Assembly: GCA_040143965.1 (NCBI GenBank) | Contig: JASJQH010006944.1 | Location: 1 to 33,868 of the forward strand | Source of the DNA: Basidiobolus ranarum | Lineage: Eukaryota | Length of the DNA stretch: 33,868 bases | Direction of reading: 5' to 3' | In this document: in pieces, positions 7,968 through 31,400 of the stretch | How the letters are laid out: every line of letters begins with the position of its first letter | How positions within the stretch are numbered: position 1 is the first letter of the stretch | Translations under genes and position numbers: made by a program | The notes under the pieces: model-generated | Database searches by the model: none | Seen by the model: the letters and a program-made list of their open reading frames with translations, nothing else | Told to the model about the DNA's origin: nothing

Positions 7968-10633
7968 ATGGAATCTAGAGAGCCCCTTATTTCTCCGACA
8001 ATCTTGACTCATAACGGCCAAGAAGATAGTCTAATGTCAGAGATAATGCAAGAGAAGTTGAATATAAATATACCAGGTCAAAGTGGAAGCCCTGATGAGG
8101 CTGAGAAAAACCCCTGGGCTGATTGCCCCCCTAGTCCACTTACCCAAAAATATATCGACTCTCATTATCAACCACCGAAAAAGTAAGATCTAATCTTTAA
8201 ACCAAGTCCTATGTATCTTTACAAACGAAATAGAGAAAGTGATTTCATTAGCTACAAGATGGTTTTTGTAACAAATTTTTATTTTCACTTCATTTTCTTA
8301 TATTTTCTTGTTTACTTGCAGTGAATCAAACGAGATGGAGATTCCCCATACTCCAGTTGGCTCTCCAACTACCGAGTTATCCACACACTCCATGAGCTAC
8401 TTTTGGGAGAATTCTTTTCATTCTCATACGGAAAAAGTCGTGTTGAATACTCCTCAAGAATACCCCCCAACCCCGCTTCCTTCCACTGGTAATACAATCA
8501 TGGTCAATATTAAGAGCTTATATCTAACATATTTCTCTTCAAAGAAGATTCCTCAGTGCCGGTGAAGTTAGTTGGCAAAAAAAACGAGCCCGTGTTTGAC
8601 CCTCAGAGTAAAGTTCCATCATTAAGCCCAAGAAACGTATCACCTGATACAAAAGAGATTCCAGGACCTTATTCTGGATTTTCAAGTCCAATACAAAGTG
8701 AAGGTTCGGATAGCGTTAGAAATGTTACCCCGGAACCATCTTCGCACCAGGATCCAGAACGCTTTGAATATAATCGTTTCTTGGAGCAGATGCGTCACAA
8801 AAGTGCAGCGCCAGTGGCGCGCTATTTAAAAAGGTAGGATTCAGCAAACAAAGATCGACCCCATCCAAATATTGAACTTTTATCTCGACATAGTTTCTTG
8901 AGAGATTTCGGTCGTAAGCCAATGTCAGTGAATGAGCAAATCAAAACTATTCATGATTTTCTTGATGTAAGAAGTGTCAACTCTAAGATTTATGCGTGCG
9001 AACAAACCAACTAACCAAGAAAACAGAGTATTGCAATCAAAATGCAGGCATGTGAGCTTTGGCAAAGTGCGTCAGAAAAAGAATTTGAAAATGCCACCGA
9101 AGGGATGGAGAAGCTTGTTATGAACCGACTGTACAAATAGTAAGCGGCATTGGTTCCATTATTCTCTCATACCATTGATTCTAATGGATATCTTAGTGCT
9201 TTTTGTCCAGCCACCACTGACGATGCAGAGAAGGATGAGGTGTTGAGTCAACGAATCCAACTTTATAAGTGGGTTCGTGAAGAGCACCTTGATATCCCTG
9301 CTAATAGCCACAACGAATCCTTTCTACAATTTGCTCAGGCCGGTAAGTAGCGCATTCCAGTCAATTTACATCAACAGAGAGTAACCCTAAGTGCTAACCA
9401 CCGTAAATCTAGAACTCCTGAAAATGAATCATTACAAAGCGCCACGTGATAAGCTGATTTGTATTCTAAACTGTTGTATTATCATCTTCGATATCCTTTA
9501 CATATTTCATTGTTGATTGCGGCAATTCACATATCCACCATTATCATCCTTAACTTTGACATACGATTATTGAAGCATCTGAATACCGATGCAAGTGCCG
9601 ATAGATTTCTACCCATTCTAATTTTGGTGGTCCTCAGGTCCAATCCATCAAAACTCATATCCAATGTACAGTACGTAGGCCTTTCATTTGATGGTCAATG
9701 ATTCTACGTGACATGCTCACACATCCCTAGATATATTTCTCGCTTCAGAAACCCTGACAAACTACAGTCTGAAGCTGGCTATTACTTGACTAACTTGGTA
9801 CGCTCATTTTCATTTCGTGAATGCCTATTCACCAGATACTAACTGTCTGATGCCATTAGATGGGCGCAATTTCCTTCATCGAAAGTATGGATTGCAAATC
9901 ACTTTCTATCTCTGAGGACGACTTCAACAAGTGTGTTGACATTTCATTTGTACTCACATCACGCTACTTTGCTAACATCTCTCTTAGACATATTGACCAA
10001 ACAGTAGAAGAGATGGCTCCGAAGCAACCACTTCCTGAACCACTGAGCAGGTCGCTAAGCTGTGATACACCCATCAACTCAACATCCACACCAACCCATA
10101 AACATAATCGACATTCACTCGAACCATCCAGTAAAGCTTATTCTCAGCGTCAAAGCTCTCGCCCTGCCAGTATCGTATCTCGCTTTCTCTCTGATATCGA
10201 GGATGAGGAGATAGCTGTGATTAGAACTCCCAGTAAATCACAACTGTCTCAATCGATGCAAACGCCCACACCATCACGTAGTTTGCCTAGAGGTGGTGAC
10301 AAGCCGAGTAGCTCAAGTTTGCGGGAAGTCCGTGATTTCAACAGCATCTCTCCTGCTTTAAGCGCACGTAAAAGATCGTCAACTGTTGGCCCATCCTATC
10401 CATCCACACCTGTCCGTAAGTCACCCACTTCAGAACGAACCCCAGGCTCATCCGTAGACTATAGTAAGGCTTTAGCCATTTTGAAAGATATGTTCACAAA
10501 CATTGATCCAGAGACATGTGAATCTATCCTTCACGCTAACAAGGGACATCTCCAACCGTCTATTGAGGCCTTGCTGGATATTTCCACTACTAACATGGCA
10601 ACCTCCAATTCAGATATGAATCATTTCCATTGA
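7968..10633 (+). CDS. VPS9: Vps9, Rab5/Vps21 guanine-nucleotide exchange factor with C-terminal CUE domain, 10 exons
   Basis: Exons 7968-8182, 8322-8488, about 8545-8833, 8894-8966, 9027-9139, 9197-9342, 9413-9490, 9565-9670, 9731-9797, 9860-9930 and 9988-10633 (11 exons if 9931-9987 is spliced, 10 if it is retained). Motifs: YLKSFLRDF, EGMEKLVMNRLY, YKAPRDKLICILNCC, SADRFLPILI, SNVQYISRFR, SEAGYYLTNLMGAISFIE. CUE-like tail LKDMFTNIDPETCESILHANKGHLQPSIEALL. The start codon is the least certain part. Confidence 0.94.
9491..9564 (+). other. U12-type (minor spliceosome) AT-AC intron in VPS9
   Basis: 5' end ATATCCTTT, branch site TCCTTAAC at 9547-9554, 3' end ...CATAC. Removing it restores ...CIIIF-G-LLKHL... 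in frame. Confidence 0.92.
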
Positions 10634-11455: not shown

Positions 11456-11542
11456 GGAATCCTCATCATACCATGAAATTCAAATCATACCCGCTAAACT
11501 TTCTTAACTTCCTCTTTAAATTATCTAAATTTAACACTAAAC

Positions 11543-12352
11543 ATGCAACTCTTAAAGGTTCTTGCTATCACTGCTGCTTTCCTCATCTCACCATCTCTAC
11601 AGCAAGATGGTACTTGTGGAAATGGAGTCCAATGCCCTCAAGGACAATGTTGCTCGAAATGGGGCTATTGCGGAACCACTTCCTTTCATTGCGATGGAAG
11701 TAATGATAATGGTAATGGCTCCGGAGGTGGCAGTAACGACAATCCTAATAATAGTGATGGCGCTACATCCACCACTGTTGTTATTGTAACTGCGAGTCCA
11801 AGCCCTACAGATCAGGCAAATCAGCCTAACCCTAATGGCGGAGTACCAACCACCGCCGTTAATCCAGGTGGAGTGATCCCTCCTGTGACTCCAGGTCAAA
11901 ATCCCCCAGTTACAGGGCAACCAGTTGACCATAATCCTCAAGCTACAGGACAACCAGCGGACCATAGTCCTCAAGCCACAGGACAACCAGCTGACCATGA
12001 TCCTCAAGCTACAGGACAACCAGCGGACCATAATCCTGCAACCACAGGACTACCAGTTGGTGAAAATCCTCAGCCTACGGAAAACCCAGCCGATCAAAAT
12101 CCCCAGACTGCAGGCCAACCAGAGAATCGCAATCCCGAAACTACAGGACTCCCAGTGGCACAAAACCCACAACCTACTGGAGAATCCGATAATGCTGGTC
12201 AGCCAGCAAACCAACAAACACCGGTACCACAAGCTCAACCTGCATCAAACACTAACAACGGGCAGAATTCTGGTGGAAATGCGAACTCTGGATTCTCTTT
12301 CAGTACTGCAACTATTGCAGGTCTACTTATGGTAGTCCCATTCTTCTTTTAA
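11543..12352 (+). CDS. Secreted, probably GPI-anchored protein with an N-terminal hevein-like (CBM18/Chitin_bind_1) domain and a Pro/Gln/Thr repeat stalk
   Basis: Signal peptide MQLLKVLAITAAFLISPSLQ. CGNGVQCPQGQCCSKWGYCGTTSFHC matches the hevein CCSxWGYCG signature. A low-complexity stalk follows, then small residues and a hydrophobic tail (NANSGFSFSTATIAGLLMVVPFFF). No catalytic domain visible. Confidence 0.9.
   Translation: MQLLKVLAITAAFLISPSLQQDGTCGNGVQCPQGQCCSKWGYCGTTSFHCDGSNDNGNGSGGGSNDNPNNSDGATSTTVVIVTASPSPTDQANQPNPNGGVPTTAVNPGGVIPPVTPGQNPPVTGQPVDHNPQATGQPADHSPQATGQPADHDPQATGQPADHNPATTGLPVGENPQPTENPADQNPQTAGQPENRNPETTGLPVAQNPQPTGESDNAGQPANQQTPVPQAQPASNTNNGQNSGGNANSGFSFSTATIAGLLMVVPFFF
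11915..12178 (+). repeat. Coding tandem repeat, 8 x 33 nt (11 aa, consensus GQPADHNPQAT)
   Basis: GQPVDHNPQAT/GQPADHSPQAT/GQPADHDPQAT/GQPADHNPATT/GLPVGENPQPT/ENPADQNPQTA/GQPENRNPETT/GLPVAQNPQPT. Confidence 0.9.
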
Positions 12353-16617: not shown

Positions 16618-19600
16618 CTACATATAATTGTACCCGATATCATTCATACCGATCAAGTTCATGGGCGCGCCGTAATTAGGCGGTGCCATATTGTTGTAGC
16701 CATAGTTGATCATATTCGAATGTTGAGGAGCCGGGTGTACCTGCTCTCTCTGAAGTTTGCCCTGTATACGCTTCCCATAAGGTGTATTGCGAATAGCAGG
16801 AAGGAGTGGTCGAATCGCATCAACCAACTAGTAGGAAACAAGATTAGGGTTATTGTGTTTCGATTCAGGTCAACGAATCACTTTTTGTACTAACCATGGC
16901 ACGTTGATTGACCTCGGCGTAATCGAGTGCCGTTTGGACTACATAATTACCAAAGGAATCTCTAAGTAGCTTATCAAGTCTCTCGCGGCTAAGAAGTTCC
17001 TCGATAAGCGCCTGACGAGTGTCAAGCTTAGAGACACGGATGCACTAATAAAATAGGAAGCGTTCATTTCCAAGAACACTATTGGGGTACATGATGGTTC
17101 AAACGTACCTTTTCCATAACATTAGAGCTAAACTTTTGCACTGACAAAAGACAAACATTCCCAACAAAACGACGAATTAAAGGATCGGAAAGTTGACCTT
17201 CATTGAGGTCCAACACATATTGTACAACATAATTTCCAAATGGATCCTACAAAAGAAGGTTAGGAACTAATAGATGAAGGAAAAGGCCTTGAAAGAGGAT
17301 TACTTGGACAAGAGTAAGCGCATGGTAAGTAATCTCCGAAACCAATTGTCTCTAAAGGAAAGAGAAGGGTATGGTTAGACATGGCCGAGTGTCCTTGAGA
17401 TATGAAAAAAGCACCTTCTGAGATTCTGATGAATAATCAATGCATCGTTGAAGAACGCAACAGCCATGACGATGTGTAGCAACCTCGATAAGACTCTTAC
17501 AGACCCCATTATATATAAACTAAAGAAACGGACGATTAATAGAAAACTCAACAGAAAACGACATTCAGAATCAATGTTGAACCTGGTTGTCTGCAGGTTT
17601 GAGGCGGTTGAGGCATTTCTGGATTACATGGTTACCGTTTAAATCCTACAAAAGGAATACCAGTTTAGTTGACGGTATTAACGATAGTAGCTTGCGATTG
17701 GATTATACTTTGATCAGTGTGACTATGTTAGGATTAAGTGCAATCATTATCATTCGAATCTGCAAAGGCAAATGGTTAGAGGCTTGTAATTGTGTAGCGA
17801 CAATTGACCAACGCTTACCTGTTGAGAGTTGGACAAAAACTCGATCATTTTTTGTACAGCCCTGGTTCCATGCATATTTAGTGCGATGTTGACAAGCTCA
17901 GGAGCAACCGTCTCTACGATAACGGTCCTTTGTTCGTCATTGCAAAACTCGAGAAGCTTTTGACAAAGATAGTTGCCAAAGGGATCGGTCATCAGCTCTA
18001 CAAAATGGCCAAATACTTCATGGAAGATGATATCGAGATACTTCGGATTTTGCTCCTCAAGTTTCTTCTGCAAGTATCTACATCCATGTTGGTCTTTGCA
18101 CAATGAGTATATTTCCCCAATCATATCTTCTATGGGTATTCCAGAGAATCGGTTTGAAGCTTCAACATCACTCGATGCTCTCTTGGAGACTTGTTTGTTG
18201 CCGTTGGGATTAGGTTGGACAGATTTACCATTATTGGAGTTAGGATGATTGAACCCATGCTTGGAAGACGTTGAGTAGTTATTTGGGGGAAAGCCGTTGC
18301 TGTTCATTTGGTTATAGAAAGTAGGGCTCAACGGACTGACAGGATAATTAAATGGATTCCCTCCGGCACTAACAGGGGATAGAATGGAGCGAGGCGAGTC
18401 GGGTGAAATAGATTTAAAGACGTGGACAAAAGTACATCTATCTCCACGAGAACAATGGCCCTGCTGAAAGAAACGGCAAACGTTACTTGAGGGAGATGTA
18501 GGTATATCACTCAAGTCTCGTGCATTGTTAGGATATTGTTGGATTCTGTGGTACCCTGGATCAATATTGCTGATGGGAGAAGTCACATTTTCTGACAGAA
18601 ATGCTTCTTGCTTGGACATCTCATTAGCGTACATTACAGTGTTGATAGATGGCGGGGGGCCTTTTCTGGTACTAATATACATAGATGCAGTTTGTCTCAA
18701 CGGCGGTCTTGTCTGTCTATAACCATGGTCACTTGATTGAGCTGAAGGATATTGCTCCCACTCTGAACCGTTCATGCCACCATTGGTTTGGCGAGAAGTC
18801 TGTGGTAGATACGCCAGATCCAAGGCAGCAGAAGAAGTCGATAACTACAATCAACAAAATTAAGAATCTCGGATAATCAATGATCAATAAATGATAACCG
18901 CTACACACCAAATCCGAATAATTATTTCTATCGGCAATGGAAGGAAATCTTTTACTCTTGCTTGTTGTTGCTTGAGGGTATCTTTGATTATATCCTAAGA
19001 GACAAGATGGATCAGGATACAAGCCATTGCTTTGCATAGATATTGAAAAATTACCAGGATTGATGTTGTCCTCCTCGAAAACAAGCATTTCAGAGAAACC
19101 AGGGAAATCTGAACTCGGATTATGATGGACATCTTCTAATCCTGAGCGCTGTTGCCCATGAACACCTTGGCCATTGTTTTCATTGAACATTGCCATTCGA
19201 GCACCACTGAAAGTAGGCAAAAAGATAAGCAAAAGATCCGAATAATCGACAGCGTTGGAACTTACTCATTAGTATGCATTTTGGGTTCATTTAAAGTAAG
19301 ACTTTTGAAATCCTCCCAAATATTCAACCTATCGTTTGAGTTCCTCCGGGAAACAGGTACTGACCGAGGAGGTGGAGACATACCACTCGACCTTTCGTGA
19401 GACTTCTTCGGCCCATAGCCATTGTTATTCGCGTGAAATGGGCCAAAGTTGCCTGAAAGATCATTCATTGAGGGCTGAACCAGAGGTGTTGGGCGAGCAA
19501 TTGGAATAGTATTAGATCTTGCCCTGGTGTCAATTTGAGGATTCCCATTGGATCCACTGGAATGAAATGAAGCGGTAGTTACTGGCAAACCGGCAGAGTT

Positions 19601-21206: not shown

Positions 21207-21677
21207 ATGGCTTCCGTTATTGCTACCGCTCGCGCCTCTTTCAAAAACCTTCTTCAAGAAGTTGATTTGCAGGTAATTACTTAGTCTAATAGACAACAAA
21301 GACTTTATTTCAGACTTTTCTAAAGTAACTTATTGCTTTTCGCATAATAGCTCACCCAAAAAACCAAGAATGTATATTGGAACGAGCAGCTTCAATTAAT
21401 CTACAAAGAAAAGCTTGATAACGGTACACCTGAAGTTGCCGCTAAAGTTCAAGCTGATGTTCAAGATATCCTTTGCTATTTAGAAAGCTCTCGCAAGCAC
21501 AAGGTAATACTACATCCTTCGAGTCTAATTTTCATCATATACTAAATGAACTGAACCATACAACAGGAACTCATGGAACGCTACAGTCCTCTTGCCAATG
21601 TCACCCCGGAGGAGAAGCTTAGCATGACTGCTAACCGCGTTGGCCTTCAGCTACCCAAAGCCTTCAATCCTGAATAA
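21207..21677 (+). CDS. FMC1: Mitochondrial ATP synthase (F1) assembly factor Fmc1-like, LYR family, 109 aa, 3 exons
   Basis: Exons 21207-21272, 21351-21503, 21567-21677 give MASVIATARASFKNLLQEVDLQLTQKTKNVYWNEQLQLIYKEKLDNGTPEVAAKVQADVQDILCYLESSRKHKELMERYSPLANVTPEEKLSMTANRVGLQLPKAFNPE*. YLxSxR...L-ERY-P...EE...TA-RVGL-LP is the Fmc1 signature. Not in the ORF track. Confidence 0.85.
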
Positions 21678-25418: not shown

Positions 25419-28400
25419 TTAATTAGATCTATTTCGGTTCTTGATGACTGTGAGACGTTCTTTGCTATTGGCAAATTGACTAGTCTTATTCTTGCGACTA
25501 TTCTTCTTCATCTCATTCTTCTGGATCTTACGCTTAGCATGGGCTTCTGGATCAGTGATGGCCTGGAAGGAGCGTTTGGCCTTACGTTCGCGACGAATAT
25601 CTACTACACGTTGACGAATCTGGTTGTATGTCTCGTGATAGACGGTGGTGCCCACTTGTTTACGAACGAAGTCCAATACCTCTTGTCCCAAGGCTCTCAG
25701 ATCTTCTGCTTCCTTACCCTTGCTAGTCTCATCATTCACAGTTCTATAAATGGGTGAAACAATGGGGATAAGGTAAGGTTGAAGTTCTTCAGGCTTAATG
25801 AAGCTAGCCATCGCGGCAAACCATTGGAAGATGAAGATTCTACGAGCAGTTGCTTTGTTTCCACCGATATCCGATCTAGCAACGAAAGAGAGTTTTTTGA
25901 ATAACCAGAATAATGCCCGATTACGGTTACTATCTCCATTCGCTTCTTCTCCTTCTCCTTCTTCTACTGGCTCAGCCTCAGCTTCAGACTCAGATTCACT
26001 ATCCTTATCCTCACCACTTCTGGTACCGTTATGATAGAAGCATTTACCAATGAAGAATGCGTTCTTAACAAGTTGAGTTCCCAAGTCCTCACTGAGATAT
26101 TCACTCTTAAGTTGAAGGCACAGTTTCTTAGCAATCTCCAAAAGCACCGACTTGCGCAGATAAGTATCTTTGGTTCCAGTGGTAGAGAACAACATTGTCT
26201 TGGGGTCAAGATATGTGAAGTAGATTCCGAACAAACGGGCAGTAGATAGACGGATCCAACTATGAGGGTGTAGGAGAAGTGAGATGATCAAATTCCAAAT
26301 TTCTCGGGAGCTTTCTTGGGTAATCACCAATGGGAATTTACGAATCAACTTTGTAAAGGTAGAGAGTGCGAAATATCCAGTTTCCCACTCGATTTCCACA
26401 TCCATATCTGCTTCTTCATCATTTTCTTCATGTTCTGACATATTTTGTTTGTTGTATTCCAAAATGGTTTTGATATGACCAAGTGTTTCTGGAATGTATT
26501 TCTTGGATTTGTCGTCGAACGAATCAATAATGAGTCCGTATACTTGAATGGAGGCTCTCTGAAGATTTTGTTGACTAGAGGGTTCGAGCCACTTGTTCAG
26601 AAGAAGGAAGATGTTCTCTAAACGGGTGGTATCCATTCGAAGAAGCAAATTCTTGATCAATACACCAGCCATTTCACGGCATTTGTTGGACTCATCATTG
26701 ACCATAGACATGACCAGAGAGAGGAAAAACATCTCCGCGTATTCCATCAAGATTTGATCGGCGAACTTGGAGAAAATTACATTCAACATTTCCATTACTG
26801 ATTGTCGACCACTCTCGTAAACATAGTCGAGATTCTTGACAAGGAAGTTCATCTGGTTGCGAAGACGTCCTTTACCTTGAGGATAATCGAGCAGAAATTG
26901 AAGGTACACATGTCTACAGAGCTCACGGACTTGAGAGGACTGACTGGTGACCATGATTTCGGAGATTACTTTCATAATATCGTAGACCTCCTCGACGATG
27001 AATTTTCTCGAGATGATGGCTTTGATGAGGGAGAATGTGATGCTTTGTCTCTCGGGTTCTTCCAAATCTGGTCTAACAAGATCAAGTACAAAGGCAAGCT
27101 GCTTCTCGGTAACATTAACGCTATTGTTATCACGGATAGCAATGGTTAATAATTTGAAGCAACTCTGTACTAACTCAGAGTGAGTAGTGCTAGATCCCTT
27201 AATAATTTGGAAAACGCGTTTCACAATAACAGGGAGACCTTCTGTGAGAGATGGAAGGGGAATCTTACAAAGTATACTCAAAGTACGTAGAGATAAGATG
27301 ATGACTTTTTGATGCTTAGAGTATGTAGAGTTTCCGACCACATCCACAAATGGATCAAGCATTTCCAGATGTTCTTTGCATTTGACATCGAACTTGCTTC
27401 GCTTAAGAGCAGACAAAAGGATGCTCAAACCGAATTCAACAAAACGATGGGCATTGGCATTGAAATAGTTGGGCTTTTCGTAGCCAGGATTTCTACCCAA
27501 TACCACAGTGAAATTGGTTTCGAGATTGGTCTTTTCTTTCTTGACCACCTTCTTAGTCTGAGATAACTTCAAGTTTTGTGAGATCAAACCGTGACAGAAT
27601 ATGAGGATTTCCTTTGGTTCGAACTGAGGATTGTTGTTGATACCTGCAGATATACGACGGAGGGATTCATCAATCTTACGAGTGACTTTACCATTCTCAG
27701 TCTCAACCATGATTTCTTTGAAGGGAACAAGTAGAACTCCGATGGACTTGAAGCGAATGATACGACCAAGAAGTTCGAATGATTCAAAACTCTTGTGGGT
27801 CTTGGCTTCCTTCATCTTATTGGTGATCTCCTGGGTTTCCTTTTCGATACCAACCTCACCGAACACATCTTCGATGAGGATTTCAATCACTGGCTCAAGA
27901 CAGTAGTCGATATCACCAACGTTTAGCTCAGGAACCATGTGCACCAAGATCGAATGCAAGGTATATCCCAAGACATGGAGTTGATAACCTCTTTGAAGAG
28001 CACCCTTCAATTCCTTAACAATGAAGGAAAAGTAAGTGGGTCCTAAGAAAGTGGCAATCTTTACAAGAGTACTACGAGTAGTATCTCGGGTCTCTTGGGA
28101 ACGACTTCTAAGGGTTTGACAGATAGAGGTCAACATTCCTGGGAGATGAGTTTGTAAAGCTTTAACCGGAAGACACTTTAGAAGTTTAGTGATAGCTAAT
28201 GCAACTGGAACTCGAACATTAACATTTTCATCATCACGTTTGGTCAAATACTTTTGAAGATCTGGCAACAACTGAGAAGTTACCGCGTTCAATATGTATG
28301 AGGCAGTGGAAGGGCTAAGTTGAGATGCCAGGGTTTGATTGGGGTGTAGCTGGTTTGACTCTTCTTCGATCTCTTCCTCTTCCTCCTCATCTTCAGGCTC

Positions 28401-31400
28401 CGCTGCGGGGGCTGCAGAGGCATCAGCTTCGGTGGTATTTGTTGGTGCTTGAACTGCTGGCTTGGGAAGCTCAAATACGGCATTGGTAAGATCGAAATGG
28501 AAGTCTTCCAAAAGTGCGACGACAACTCTGACCAAGATCTTCTCCAAGAGAGGCTTCTTGGGGATCAATTTGAGGTATTGTCTAATCATCCCGTAGTATG
28601 GACCCCAAGGCAATTGTTTACTAATAACACCCAATCCAGTAACCGTTTCATTAATGAGATTGTGATCAGAGATGGTATCTGACTCGAAGATGAAATGAGA
28701 CAAGAGGGGAATGAAGATTCGGGTGATATTGGAGGCCTTGATTTTACCAGCTTGGCATTCTGTAGCCAAACGGGTGACTGATCTAATACGACGATGAAGC
28801 TGGATATGATGGATATTGTTGAAGAAACTGGCTTCGTCATCGCCTTCAGCGAGCAAACAGGACATATCTGATATTTCATCCAGATCTGGACGTTCTTTGA
28901 TGGCATGAGCAAGAATGGTAAGGAATTCCACTCTGATGATTTCTTGTCGAGATCTCATACCCTTTCTGATGGAAGGGAAGACAACATGGGTGAGCAAGTT
29001 GTGGAACTTCGCATTAAGCTCCGAGTCCTTGATGTCGATAGTGCGATCAACGAATTTAGTCAGTGCAAACGATGCATTGTTACGAATGGACATTTCCTCA
29101 GGATCTTGAACAAAATAGATCAGATTGTGCAAGACAGGAAGCCATTGGTCGGGTGTAAATTCGAGATAGATTGTTTGAGTAAGAGTTGCAAAAGCGACCA
29201 ATCTTCTGTCAAAGTCTGGCTCATCCAAACGAGTAGCCGAGAACGAATTTAACTCAGTAATAAGTTGAACGACAGGCAGCAACTTAGGGTCGAATGAGGA
29301 AAAGGTAGTAAGCACCTCGGCCAAAAGTACACGACAATCTCTAGATTCCAAGGTAGAGAACATAAGAGAAATAAACGAATAGTAACGAGTGTACAGAGAT
29401 GAGAGTTCCTTGAGTTCGACAATAAGAGGAATGAAATTCTTCATGATGAGAAGAATATCTGCCTTGGTCTTCTCAGGAACCACTCTAACAGGCTTCTTGA
29501 GACTTGGAAGCAAAATATCAACCAGTTGACGTGCTTGTTCACCATGCTTAACATAGGCAGCAATTTGAGAGAGGATAAAGATCTGTCTCTTTGAAAATTG
29601 ATCTTTACCAAAAGCAACACTCTCACTTGCGACAGTGATAATATGGCCAATGTTATTAAGCAAGTCATCCACATAAGGCAGGATAATATATTCAGCCAGG
29701 TTTTGTTCATTGTTTGAGCTTGGCTCCAAATGCATGGACAAGATGTCTTCGATAATTTCCAATACAGCAGAGATGACGGAGTTCTGAACCTTCTTGGCAG
29801 ACAGGCATCCGAAGATTACTTTTAAGAGATTCTTATCATAGTCAACAAAGAAGCTAACATACTCGACACGCTTGGCCCAGATGGTAAACAAATCCATAAG
29901 AGCAGTAGGGGCTTGCGAGTTTTCGACGGAGAACTTGGGAATTCGAGGTGTGATTGCAACTTCGAAGATATATGGCAAATAAGCAGCATAATCAAAAGTG
30001 GCATTTAACTTAAAGAATCCACCAAGACGCTTGACGCTAAGCTGTCTAATTTCTCTTCTCTGTAATAGATCAATAGGCTCAAGGTCATCCTCATTAACTG
30101 TGCGAGAGGCATCAGTTAACATGTATAGAACAGTTTTCAAAAGCTCTGGAATAAAGGGAAGTACAAACGAAGCCAGTTGTTTGAGGACATCTTCCAGATT
30201 ATGAAGGAAACCAAGTTGCTTTCTGACAGGTACCATAGCACTAATATTGAAGTTAACATCAGGTTGGAATTTCCCGTCCACGATGCCCGGTGTTGAATTC
30301 AAACATTCGAAGGGCTCAAGCATAAGTTTGATGAACTCATTGAGTTCCTCTTCGCTCAAATGAGCTATTGTCTGAAGAACGGCAATTCTGCGGGCAGCCA
30401 TTCCAAGTTTAGATGACACCTTTCCTTTTCTAGCGATCATACGACCGTAGAGAATACGAACAAGCAAGGGGATAAGTTCAGCGCGATGTGCGGCATCTAC
30501 ACTACCACTCTCCCGATCCAATGAGAAAGTGGAGAGTTCATCACGGAATTTGATATCATCCAGCAAATTTCTCAAATTATCCGCATAGGGAATGACTTGT
30601 GGAGTTTTCCAAGTGAATACACACTCTAAAGCTAACAATTGAATCTTGGCATCACCTCTAGCGAGAAGTGAAAGGTAAATAGTCTTGAGTTCGACGGATT
30701 TGTATACACTCTTTGGGTTCTTGAATTTAGCGAAGAGTTGTAGATAAAGGTTCATCTTGTTCTTGGTAGCCTTTGTAGAATGCTCAAGAACTAGTCCTTT
30801 GTCGGTTCTTTCACTAGCCCCATCAACATCCATATCCTCATTCTCTTCTTCAGCGTTTTGTCCGTGCAACTGAATCTGTTCAAAGACAGCCTCATATTCC
30901 TCTTTGACGAATTTCATGAATACAGGCACCAAGCTTCGAGAATGTTGCTCGGCAATATATGGCACTTCGCCCAAAGTCTTGATGATAAGACTATAATAAT
31001 TCCAGTAATCCAAATGATCCTTAGTAGGCTCCCAAATAGAAATGAACTCCATCAAGAAGCTTTTAGCCATATCAGTCTTTACGAAAGATTGACCAACCTC
31101 AAAAGCCTTATGAAGCTTTTGAACGGCTGGACAGCTGAATGTTAAACCACCACTCTCAACGGGTTTAAATGCCACTTCGAAGTGATGCATATTCGCAATG
31201 TATTCCAAATACGAGTCATTTGCAACTGGAGTTAAGCCACTTTCTAATAGACGAGACTCTTCTTCGAATTTGGAAAATTCATTGTGGAAAATATCCCAGA
31301 AAGTATGACTATCCACTTTAGCGAATTTGGCTGCAAGTGAGATAGCCTCAGGCCAGATAAGGCTCAAGTTGATGGTGAAAAGACCTAACAGAAATGCATG

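Follow-up and report, generated by a model that had tools for sequence, protein, structure and literature searches.

The 33,868-nucleotide stretch of Basidiobolus ranarum DNA analysed here (the window; contig JASJQH010006944.1) contains a VPS9-domain gene annotated by NCBI as K7432_002527. A protein search with the translation of the last exon (214 amino acids) returned four proteins with E ≤ 0.001 among 3,999 candidates, and the 656-residue product of K7432_002527, designated P0001, matched the query with 100% identity. Nine of the introns delimited by mapping P0001 onto the window are 56–139 nucleotides long and fit GT-AG boundaries, and most of them contain a CTAAC-like branch site. For the remaining intron, number 7, only one choice of boundaries fits, and its termini are AT-AC. 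Because no other pair of boundaries is possible for intron 7, the NCBI gene model already splices out exactly the segment that is the subject of this report.

Table 1. Features of the VPS9-domain gene and of intron 7, with positions counted from the first base of the window, and metagenomic loci with a GT-AG intron at the equivalent site.
Feature	Positions	Strand	Remarks
Coding region of VPS9-domain gene, NCBI K7432_002527, 656 aa	7968–10633	+	11 exons, 10 introns; P0001 100% identical, mapped exon by exon
Exon 7	9413–9490	+	78 nt, phase 1 to phase 1; encodes ELLKMNHYKAPRDKLICILNCCIIIF; matches Arabidopsis VPS9a 2efc
Intron 7, probable U12-type AT-AC	9491–9564	+	74 nt, phase 1 in Gly361; sole boundary pair that yields the protein
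5' splice site ATATCCTTT, U12/U11-type donor	9491–9499	+	read from the sequence; fits the U12 donor consensus
In-frame TGA that would end translation on intron retention	9514–9516	+	read-through frame ...IIIFDILYIFHC*
Branch-site box TCCTTAAC	9547–9554	+	10 nt before the 3' splice site
AC 3' terminus	9563–9564	+	read from the sequence
Exon 8	9565–9670	+	encodes (G)LLKHLNTDASADRFLPILILVVLRSNPSKLISNV(Q); Asp373 codon at 9600–9602; matches Rabex-5 1txu
Loci with GT-AG intron at the equivalent site			L036, L047, L048, L054, L058, L060, L062, L067, L070, L074–L080

The spliced P0001 contains one unbroken VPS9 domain (PF02204) at residues 331–429, which covers profile positions 3–103 of 104 with an E-value of 4.3e-34 and a score of 117.4 bits (cut-off 27). 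The VPS9 domain is preceded by the helical bundle DUF5601 (PF18151), which is recognized with an E-value of 1.1e-18 and a score of 67.5 bits (cut-off 23). The conserved aspartate of the xADxFLP motif is present, and the SADRFLP segment of P0001 aligns with SADDFLP of Rabex-5. Judging by the literature on Rabex-5 and VPS9a, Asp373 is presumably the catalytic aspartate. K7432_002527 is predicted to encode a VPS9-domain exchange factor of the Rab5 family. The idea that Rab5 activation is rate-limited by minor splicing is unsupported speculation, and the finding of the intron carries no message yet on Rab5 regulation.

Introns of the U12 type have a donor with the consensus [A/G]TATCCTT, a branch box located about 10–15 nucleotides upstream of the 3' splice site, and either AT-AC or GT-AG termini, and they lack a polypyrimidine tract. 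The donor of intron 7 fits this consensus right at the start of the intron, and the branch box is located within the characteristic distance of the 3' splice site. The tail of the intron that follows the branch box, TTTGACATAC, is 10 nucleotides long and does not include a run of pyrimidines. The termini are AT, at positions 9491–9492, and AC, and the intron lacks a polypyrimidine tract. The upstream exon ends with ...atc ttc g and the downstream exon starts with ga tta ttg aag; therefore, the intron is in phase 1 of a glycine codon. This phase agrees with the published phase bias of minor introns. If intron 7 were retained, the reading frame would continue as F-D-I-L-Y-I-F-H-C and terminate at the TGA. 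A first-pass annotation of the window had called the segment a minor-spliceosome AT-AC intron that interrupts the VPS9 domain of a fungus, and this core reading is upheld. Its positions of the donor and branch box, the length of 74 nucleotides, the AC end, and the premature stop codon upon retention were all confirmed by direct reading.

The combination of signals in intron 7 is unique in the window. The pattern TATCCTT-N30-60-TCCTTRAY-N6-14-A[C/G] has one match when both strands of the 33,868 bases are considered, and no match in 100 dinucleotide-preserving shuffles. The expectation based on nucleotide composition is 0.57 occurrences per window for ATATCCTTT alone and 1.33 for TCCTTAAC. There are ten sites with the sequence [AG]TATCCT[TC] in the window, seven on the plus strand and three on the minus strand, and only the site at 9491 is accompanied by a branch box and an AC or AG end at an intron-like distance. 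The other nine U12-like donors were all discarded as introns. Sites 21466 (plus strand) and 18752 (minus strand) are located in apparent coding sequence and have no branch box, and the sole partner of site 30832 is a weak box more than 900 nucleotides away. The segment had also been described as the only intron not of the GT-AG kind among about 50 in the window. That description holds for the VPS9 gene, in which nine of the ten introns fit GT-AG, and for the scan of the window with the U12 motif; the boundary check covered the ten introns of this gene.

The assignment of the junction between 9490 and 9565 is based on homology and on the public gene model. The region 9430–9650 contains 41 frame-keeping splice pairs with GT-AG, GC-AG, or AT-AC termini. 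None of the 41 pairs is GT-AG, in agreement with the first-pass annotation, which had found no nearby GT-AG pair that would rebuild the helix. All seven GC-AG pairs were rejected, because each deletes conserved residues from PRDKLICILNCC or from the region around SADRFLP. Among the AT-AC pairs, only 9491–9564 yields the homologue-like sequence ...CCIIIFGLLKHL.... The claim that exact excision rebuilds the conserved helix upstream of the aspartate of SADRFLP is borne out by the unbroken VPS9 domain of the spliced product.

The exons flanking the junction are supported by homologues. The translation of exon 7 matches residues 144–168 of the Arabidopsis VPS9a chain 2efc with an E-value of 5e-8, and that of exon 8 matches residues 186–214 of the Rabex-5 chain 1txu with an E-value of 3.9e-4. 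A HMMER search identified 3,840 relatives with E ≤ 0.001, 150 of which were listed. In a phmmer alignment of 152 proteins, the span from ILNCC to ADxFLP has the 26 residues of the spliced model in 100 of 156 rows, and 27 residues in 22 more. Across an alignment of 20 homologous sequences, the conservation of Gly361 is 90% or more, and A372, D373, F375, and P377 are invariant. The motifs, the exact restoration of the frame, and the homology agree with each other. The segment 9491–9564 is, with a probability of about 0.92, a genuine textbook U12-type AT-AC intron, the seventh of ten in the VPS9-domain gene of B. ranarum.

Paralogues of P0001 were identified in both B. ranarum (P0004) and B. meristosporus (P0002, P0003, and P0005, the last of which came from a later search). 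The ...IIIFGLLKHL... junction is common to P0003 and P0004; these are predicted proteins, perhaps with shared annotation logic, and do not constitute independent evidence. In P0002, a JGI model, the homologous segment is read through in frame as F-DILFITCCYLAKPNTSIFNSDLR-LLKHL (F-DILF...SDLR-LLKHL). The residues D-I-L fit g|AT ATC CTn and the last arginine fits C|ga, which would imply that an AT...AC segment of equal phase lies here and that ...AAY precedes its end by 10 nucleotides, as it does in the window. P0002 also runs through the preceding intron and is a poor model overall. P0005 has the sequence IF-DIL-LPSHV at the homologous spot and looks like a gene model that may have failed around the donor of intron 7. 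It had been stated that gene predictors mis-model AT-AC introns. This applies to P0002 and apparently to P0005; it has no force for K7432_002527, because the NCBI model splices intron 7 correctly.

Minor introns are abundant in the genus Basidiobolus. For the sister species B. meristosporus, two published surveys count 249 minor introns (0.554%; Larue and Roy 2023, PMC10639083), a density higher than in any other fungus, and 237 (Olthof et al. 2024, PMC11347168). According to the latter study, zoopagomycotes have high-confidence U11, U12, and U6atac, and the U4atac of B. meristosporus is only putative and divergent (PMC11347168). By extension from these results within the genus, it is plausible that B. 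ranarum encodes U11, U12, U4atac, and U6atac. An Rfam scan of the 33.9-kb window at the gathering score gave no matches, as expected for 34 kb. Among the many minor introns described for Basidiobolus, intron 7 is unremarkable. Its presence is unsurprising in a genus that holds the published fungal record for such introns, and the public gene model already removes it. The B. meristosporus catalogue (PMC10639083, PMC11347168) concerns the same genus and the same class of introns, with the junction of P0003 and the AT...AC read-through of P0002 as counterparts; by contrast, the copy described here is that of B. ranarum. No publication linking VPS9 or RABGEF1 to minor or U12 introns was found in the literature searched.

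If intron 7 follows the standard scheme for minor introns, its removal would run as follows. U11 would pair with the ATATCCTTT donor, and U12 would pair with TCCTTAAC, placing the branch adenosine about 11–12 nucleotides from the AC terminus. Catalysis would be completed by U4atac/U6atac.U5, so that position 9490 is ligated to 9565 and both the codon of Gly361 and the helical segment ...NCCIIIF-G-LLKHL... are restored.

Introns at the site equivalent to Gly361 are also found in other fungi. When metagenome contigs were searched with a profile built from 20 sequences, 573 stretches matched, 322 of which were confirmed as VPS9 loci, and the best 80 of the 322 were analysed; they are mostly Dikarya-like, and intron-rich relatives, which score lower in tblastn, may be missing from them. 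In 63 of these best 80 loci, nothing interrupts the sequence between PRDK and ADxF[LIVMFT]P, and the stretch measures 78, 81, or 84 nucleotides. It is interrupted in 16, and the motif is absent in one. Some of the contiguous loci may be transcripts; several are on contigs of 150–485 kb and are genomic. All 16 interrupted loci, which represent about 12 distinct sequences (L060 and L062, L074 and L075, and L079 and L080 are duplicates, and L067 is close to L076), admit a GT-AG intron in phase 1 of the glycine codon equivalent to Gly361. Excision of this intron restores ...[FM]G[LFY]L.... The intron starts 49 nucleotides after the first base of the proline codon of PRDK, and position 9491 of the window has the same offset, since the codon of Pro345 starts at 9442. 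The introns are thus like intron 7 in position, offset, and phase. They differ from it in having GT-AG termini, a length of 48–70 nucleotides, CTAAC- or CTGAC-like branch sites, and no U12 signals. A second AT-AC copy of the VPS9 intron was not found among the best 80 of the 322 metagenomic loci.

Among the proteins compared, the best tblastn matches of the 16 interrupted loci have identities of 36–66% in the top HSP. Of the best matches checked by name, eight belong to Pezizomycotina: Saccharata, Elasticomyces, Thelocarpon, Xylographa, Rhizina, Drechslerella, Penicillium, and Aspergillus. The intron is absent from the Gly361 site in the loci nearest to Basidiomycota (Flammula, Puccinia, and Malassezia) and to a budding yeast (Tortispora). 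The position of intron 9 (phase 0, after GYYLTNL) is shared as well: a GT donor directly follows the equivalent leucine codon in 12 loci, in a comparison in which the motif used missed 35 of the 80. The sequence context of the Gly361 site, TTTG|G or TTCG|G, is not known to be a good proto-splice site. Because two intron positions, those of introns 7 and 9, are shared, the shared positions look like the result of inheritance.

Gene models from early-diverging fungi provide a further indication about the site. The equivalent of exon 7 is missing (...FAxx-G-LI[KR]HV...) from the VPS9 models of Funneliformis caledonium, F. geosporum, Umbelopsis vinacea, and Jimgerdemannia flammicorona. Skipping of exon 7 keeps the reading frame, since its length is 78 nucleotides. 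The residues after CCKGIY are deleted from the VPS9 model of Entrophospora. That the models from Glomeromycota and Mucoromycota break exactly at the Gly361 site hints that a non-standard intron may be present there too. Rhizophagus irregularis, a member of Glomeromycota with a full minor system and with 205 minor introns according to Larue and Roy 2023 (PMC10639083), resembles Basidiobolus in being an early-diverging fungus with this machinery, and the VPS9 models of Glomeromycota are aberrant at the Gly361 site. The sequence of a Glomeromycota-like contig of 1,009 base pairs, L065, reads ...NCCKVIFGLLR... without interruption.

The occurrence of GT-AG introns at the identical site and in the identical phase in 16 of the best 80 of the 322 loci indicates that the position is old and that the type of intron differs between lineages. 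The earlier suggestion that the position may be ancient is therefore upheld within fungi, on the strength of those loci, the named nearest proteins of which are from Pezizomycotina. The simplest reading of the sequences is that the Gly361 site may represent one old fungal intron position, occupied by a U12-type intron in Basidiobolus and by a major-type intron in lineages that lost the minor spliceosome. Published work reports the loss of the minor spliceosome in Ascomycota (PMC10639083, PMC11347168) and no convincing minor introns in Ascomycota and Basidiomycota (Larue and Roy 2023, PMC10639083).

The direction of the change of intron type can be read in two ways. In the first, to which we assign a probability just short of even, Gly361 is an ancestral fungal minor-intron position, at which the U12-type intron has been kept in Basidiobolus, was converted to GT-AG or lost in Ascomycota after the loss of the minor spliceosome, and survives in Glomeromycota and Mucoromycota as an intron of non-standard type that disrupts the VPS9 models there. 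If this is true, the VPS9 gene would provide a clean, datable example of minor-to-major conversion spanning the fungal tree, and a marker for annotation errors. In the second, an older major-type intron was recently converted in the Basidiobolus lineage, so that intron 7 is real and U12-type and does not descend from an ancestral minor intron. We regard the recent conversion as a serious candidate with odds somewhat below even. In its favour, the ancestor of Zoopagomycota has been reconstructed with a low density of minor introns, despite the high density in Basidiobolus, in PMC10639083; this is taken to imply gains in the Basidiobolus lineage and therefore leaves room for major-to-minor conversion, which is discussed as an occasional event in PMC11347168. 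The GT-AG introns at the Gly361 site in Ascomycota-like loci are also in line with the recent conversion; however, they are expected under either direction, because Ascomycota lost the minor spliceosome and an ancestral minor intron must convert or vanish. The breaks of the Glomeromycota and Mucoromycota gene models exactly at the Gly361 site, with their hint of a non-standard intron, speak against the recent conversion. The recent conversion concerns only history and is compatible with the U12-type AT-AC reading of intron 7.

It is very unlikely that B. ranarum lacks a working minor spliceosome and splices out intron 7, as an AT-AC intron, with the major (U2-type) machinery. Such a scenario could draw on the splicing of the Gly361 site as GT-AG in other fungi, and on the fact that a high-confidence U4atac is missing even in B. 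meristosporus, according to PMC11347168. The signals of the intron argue to the contrary: ATATCCTTT together with TCCTTAAC 10 nucleotides from the 3' end are characteristic of the minor class, and not of the major-class form of AT-AC introns, as judged by the consensus, and there is no pyrimidine tract. Furthermore, PMC10639083 and PMC11347168 attribute to B. meristosporus 237–249 such introns as well as U11, U12, and U6atac. The notion that the 74 nucleotides are not an intron, and instead stem from an insertion that disrupts the gene, from faulty assembly, or from damage in a pseudogene, with a fortuitous match to splice signals, would be in keeping with the stop codon encountered upon retention, but it is scarcely credible in view of the absence of the combined motif from 100 shuffles, the base-exact excision that restores the conserved domain, the homologous AT...AC segment implied in the B. 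meristosporus paralogue P0002, the 16 other fungal loci with an intron at the Gly361 site among the best 80 of 322, and the intact remainder of the VPS9 gene.

The U12-type reading of intron 7 supplies a well-defined case from B. ranarum in a genus rich in minor introns, and confirms that a true minor intron can be spotted from the sequence alone, without tools. Its new value is modest and comparative: at one and the same codon position, Basidiobolus probably has a U12-type AT-AC intron and some Ascomycota-like genomes have one of the GT-AG kind, and several gene models of Glomeromycota and Mucoromycota break there. This makes the VPS9 Gly361 site a convenient test case for the conversion of intron types and for checks of annotation pipelines. 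Intron 7 shares several traits with the classical U12-type AT-AC introns known from animals and plants: the ATATCCTT donor, the location of TCCTTAAC near the 3' end, the AC terminus, a phase that is not 0, and the lack of a pyrimidine tract. Unlike these introns, it is fungal and short, with a length of 74 nucleotides.

Public gene models of several homologues of the VPS9-domain gene K7432_002527 are broken at the position of its intron 7, the U12-type AT-AC intron that splits the Gly361 codon. The models from Funneliformis (P0018 and P0153), Umbelopsis vinacea (P0047), Jimgerdemannia (P0132), and Entrophospora (P0020 and P0155) lack either the exon-7 equivalent or residues at the Gly361 site. 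The skip or deletion falls exactly at these elements and leaves the VPS9 domain without a conserved helix. All six models were probably misannotated in the region of a non-standard intron.

In the model from Geosiphon pyriformis (P0009), the residue of the split codon is arginine instead of the conserved glycine (KVIF-R-LIRKV). Arginine is the residue expected if the final C of an ...AC intron end is read together with the exon GA. For a protein from a 1025-nt Logan contig of the Funneliformis cluster (P0154), the beginning of the open reading frame (MLI-GLIRHV...) coincides precisely with that of the exon-8 equivalent, and the frame continues unbroken to the C-terminus. The contig could represent a transcript that retains the 3' end of the intron (which would end ...ATAG), with the downstream introns spliced. 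In the B. meristosporus paralogue K493DRAFT_334882 (P0002), the equivalent of intron 6 is also read through (FAQA-GRHFPAHPALANTNSTMNL-ELLKMN); the model contains two in-frame retained introns and is unreliable.

The intron at the shared Gly site of metagenomic locus L070 starts with GTATCCAT, which is similar to the donor of U12-type GT-AG introns, and ends with ...GCCTAATCAAAACATAAACAG. This intron may descend from a minor intron that underwent conversion, or the resemblance may be due to chance. The proteins nearest to L070:1761-1924 are Vps9 of Penicillium and Aspergillus.

The position of intron 9 is common to 12 of the best 80 of 322 confirmed metagenomic loci, in which a GT donor lies directly 3' of the equivalent Leu codon.

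Intron 9 and other features of the contig
Feature	Window position	Strand	Details
Intron 9	9798-9859		phase 0, after GYYLTNL
ORF with chitin-binding domain	11498-12349	+	Chitin_bind_1
Protein with PUF repeats and CCCH zinc finger	17753-18844	-	
UTP20 small-subunit processome protein	25422-31400	-	UTP20_N, E 7e-196

Two further copies of ATATCCTT are present in the window, at 21466 (+) and 18752 (-). Both were rejected as introns, because they lie within apparent coding sequence and no branch box was found downstream of either.
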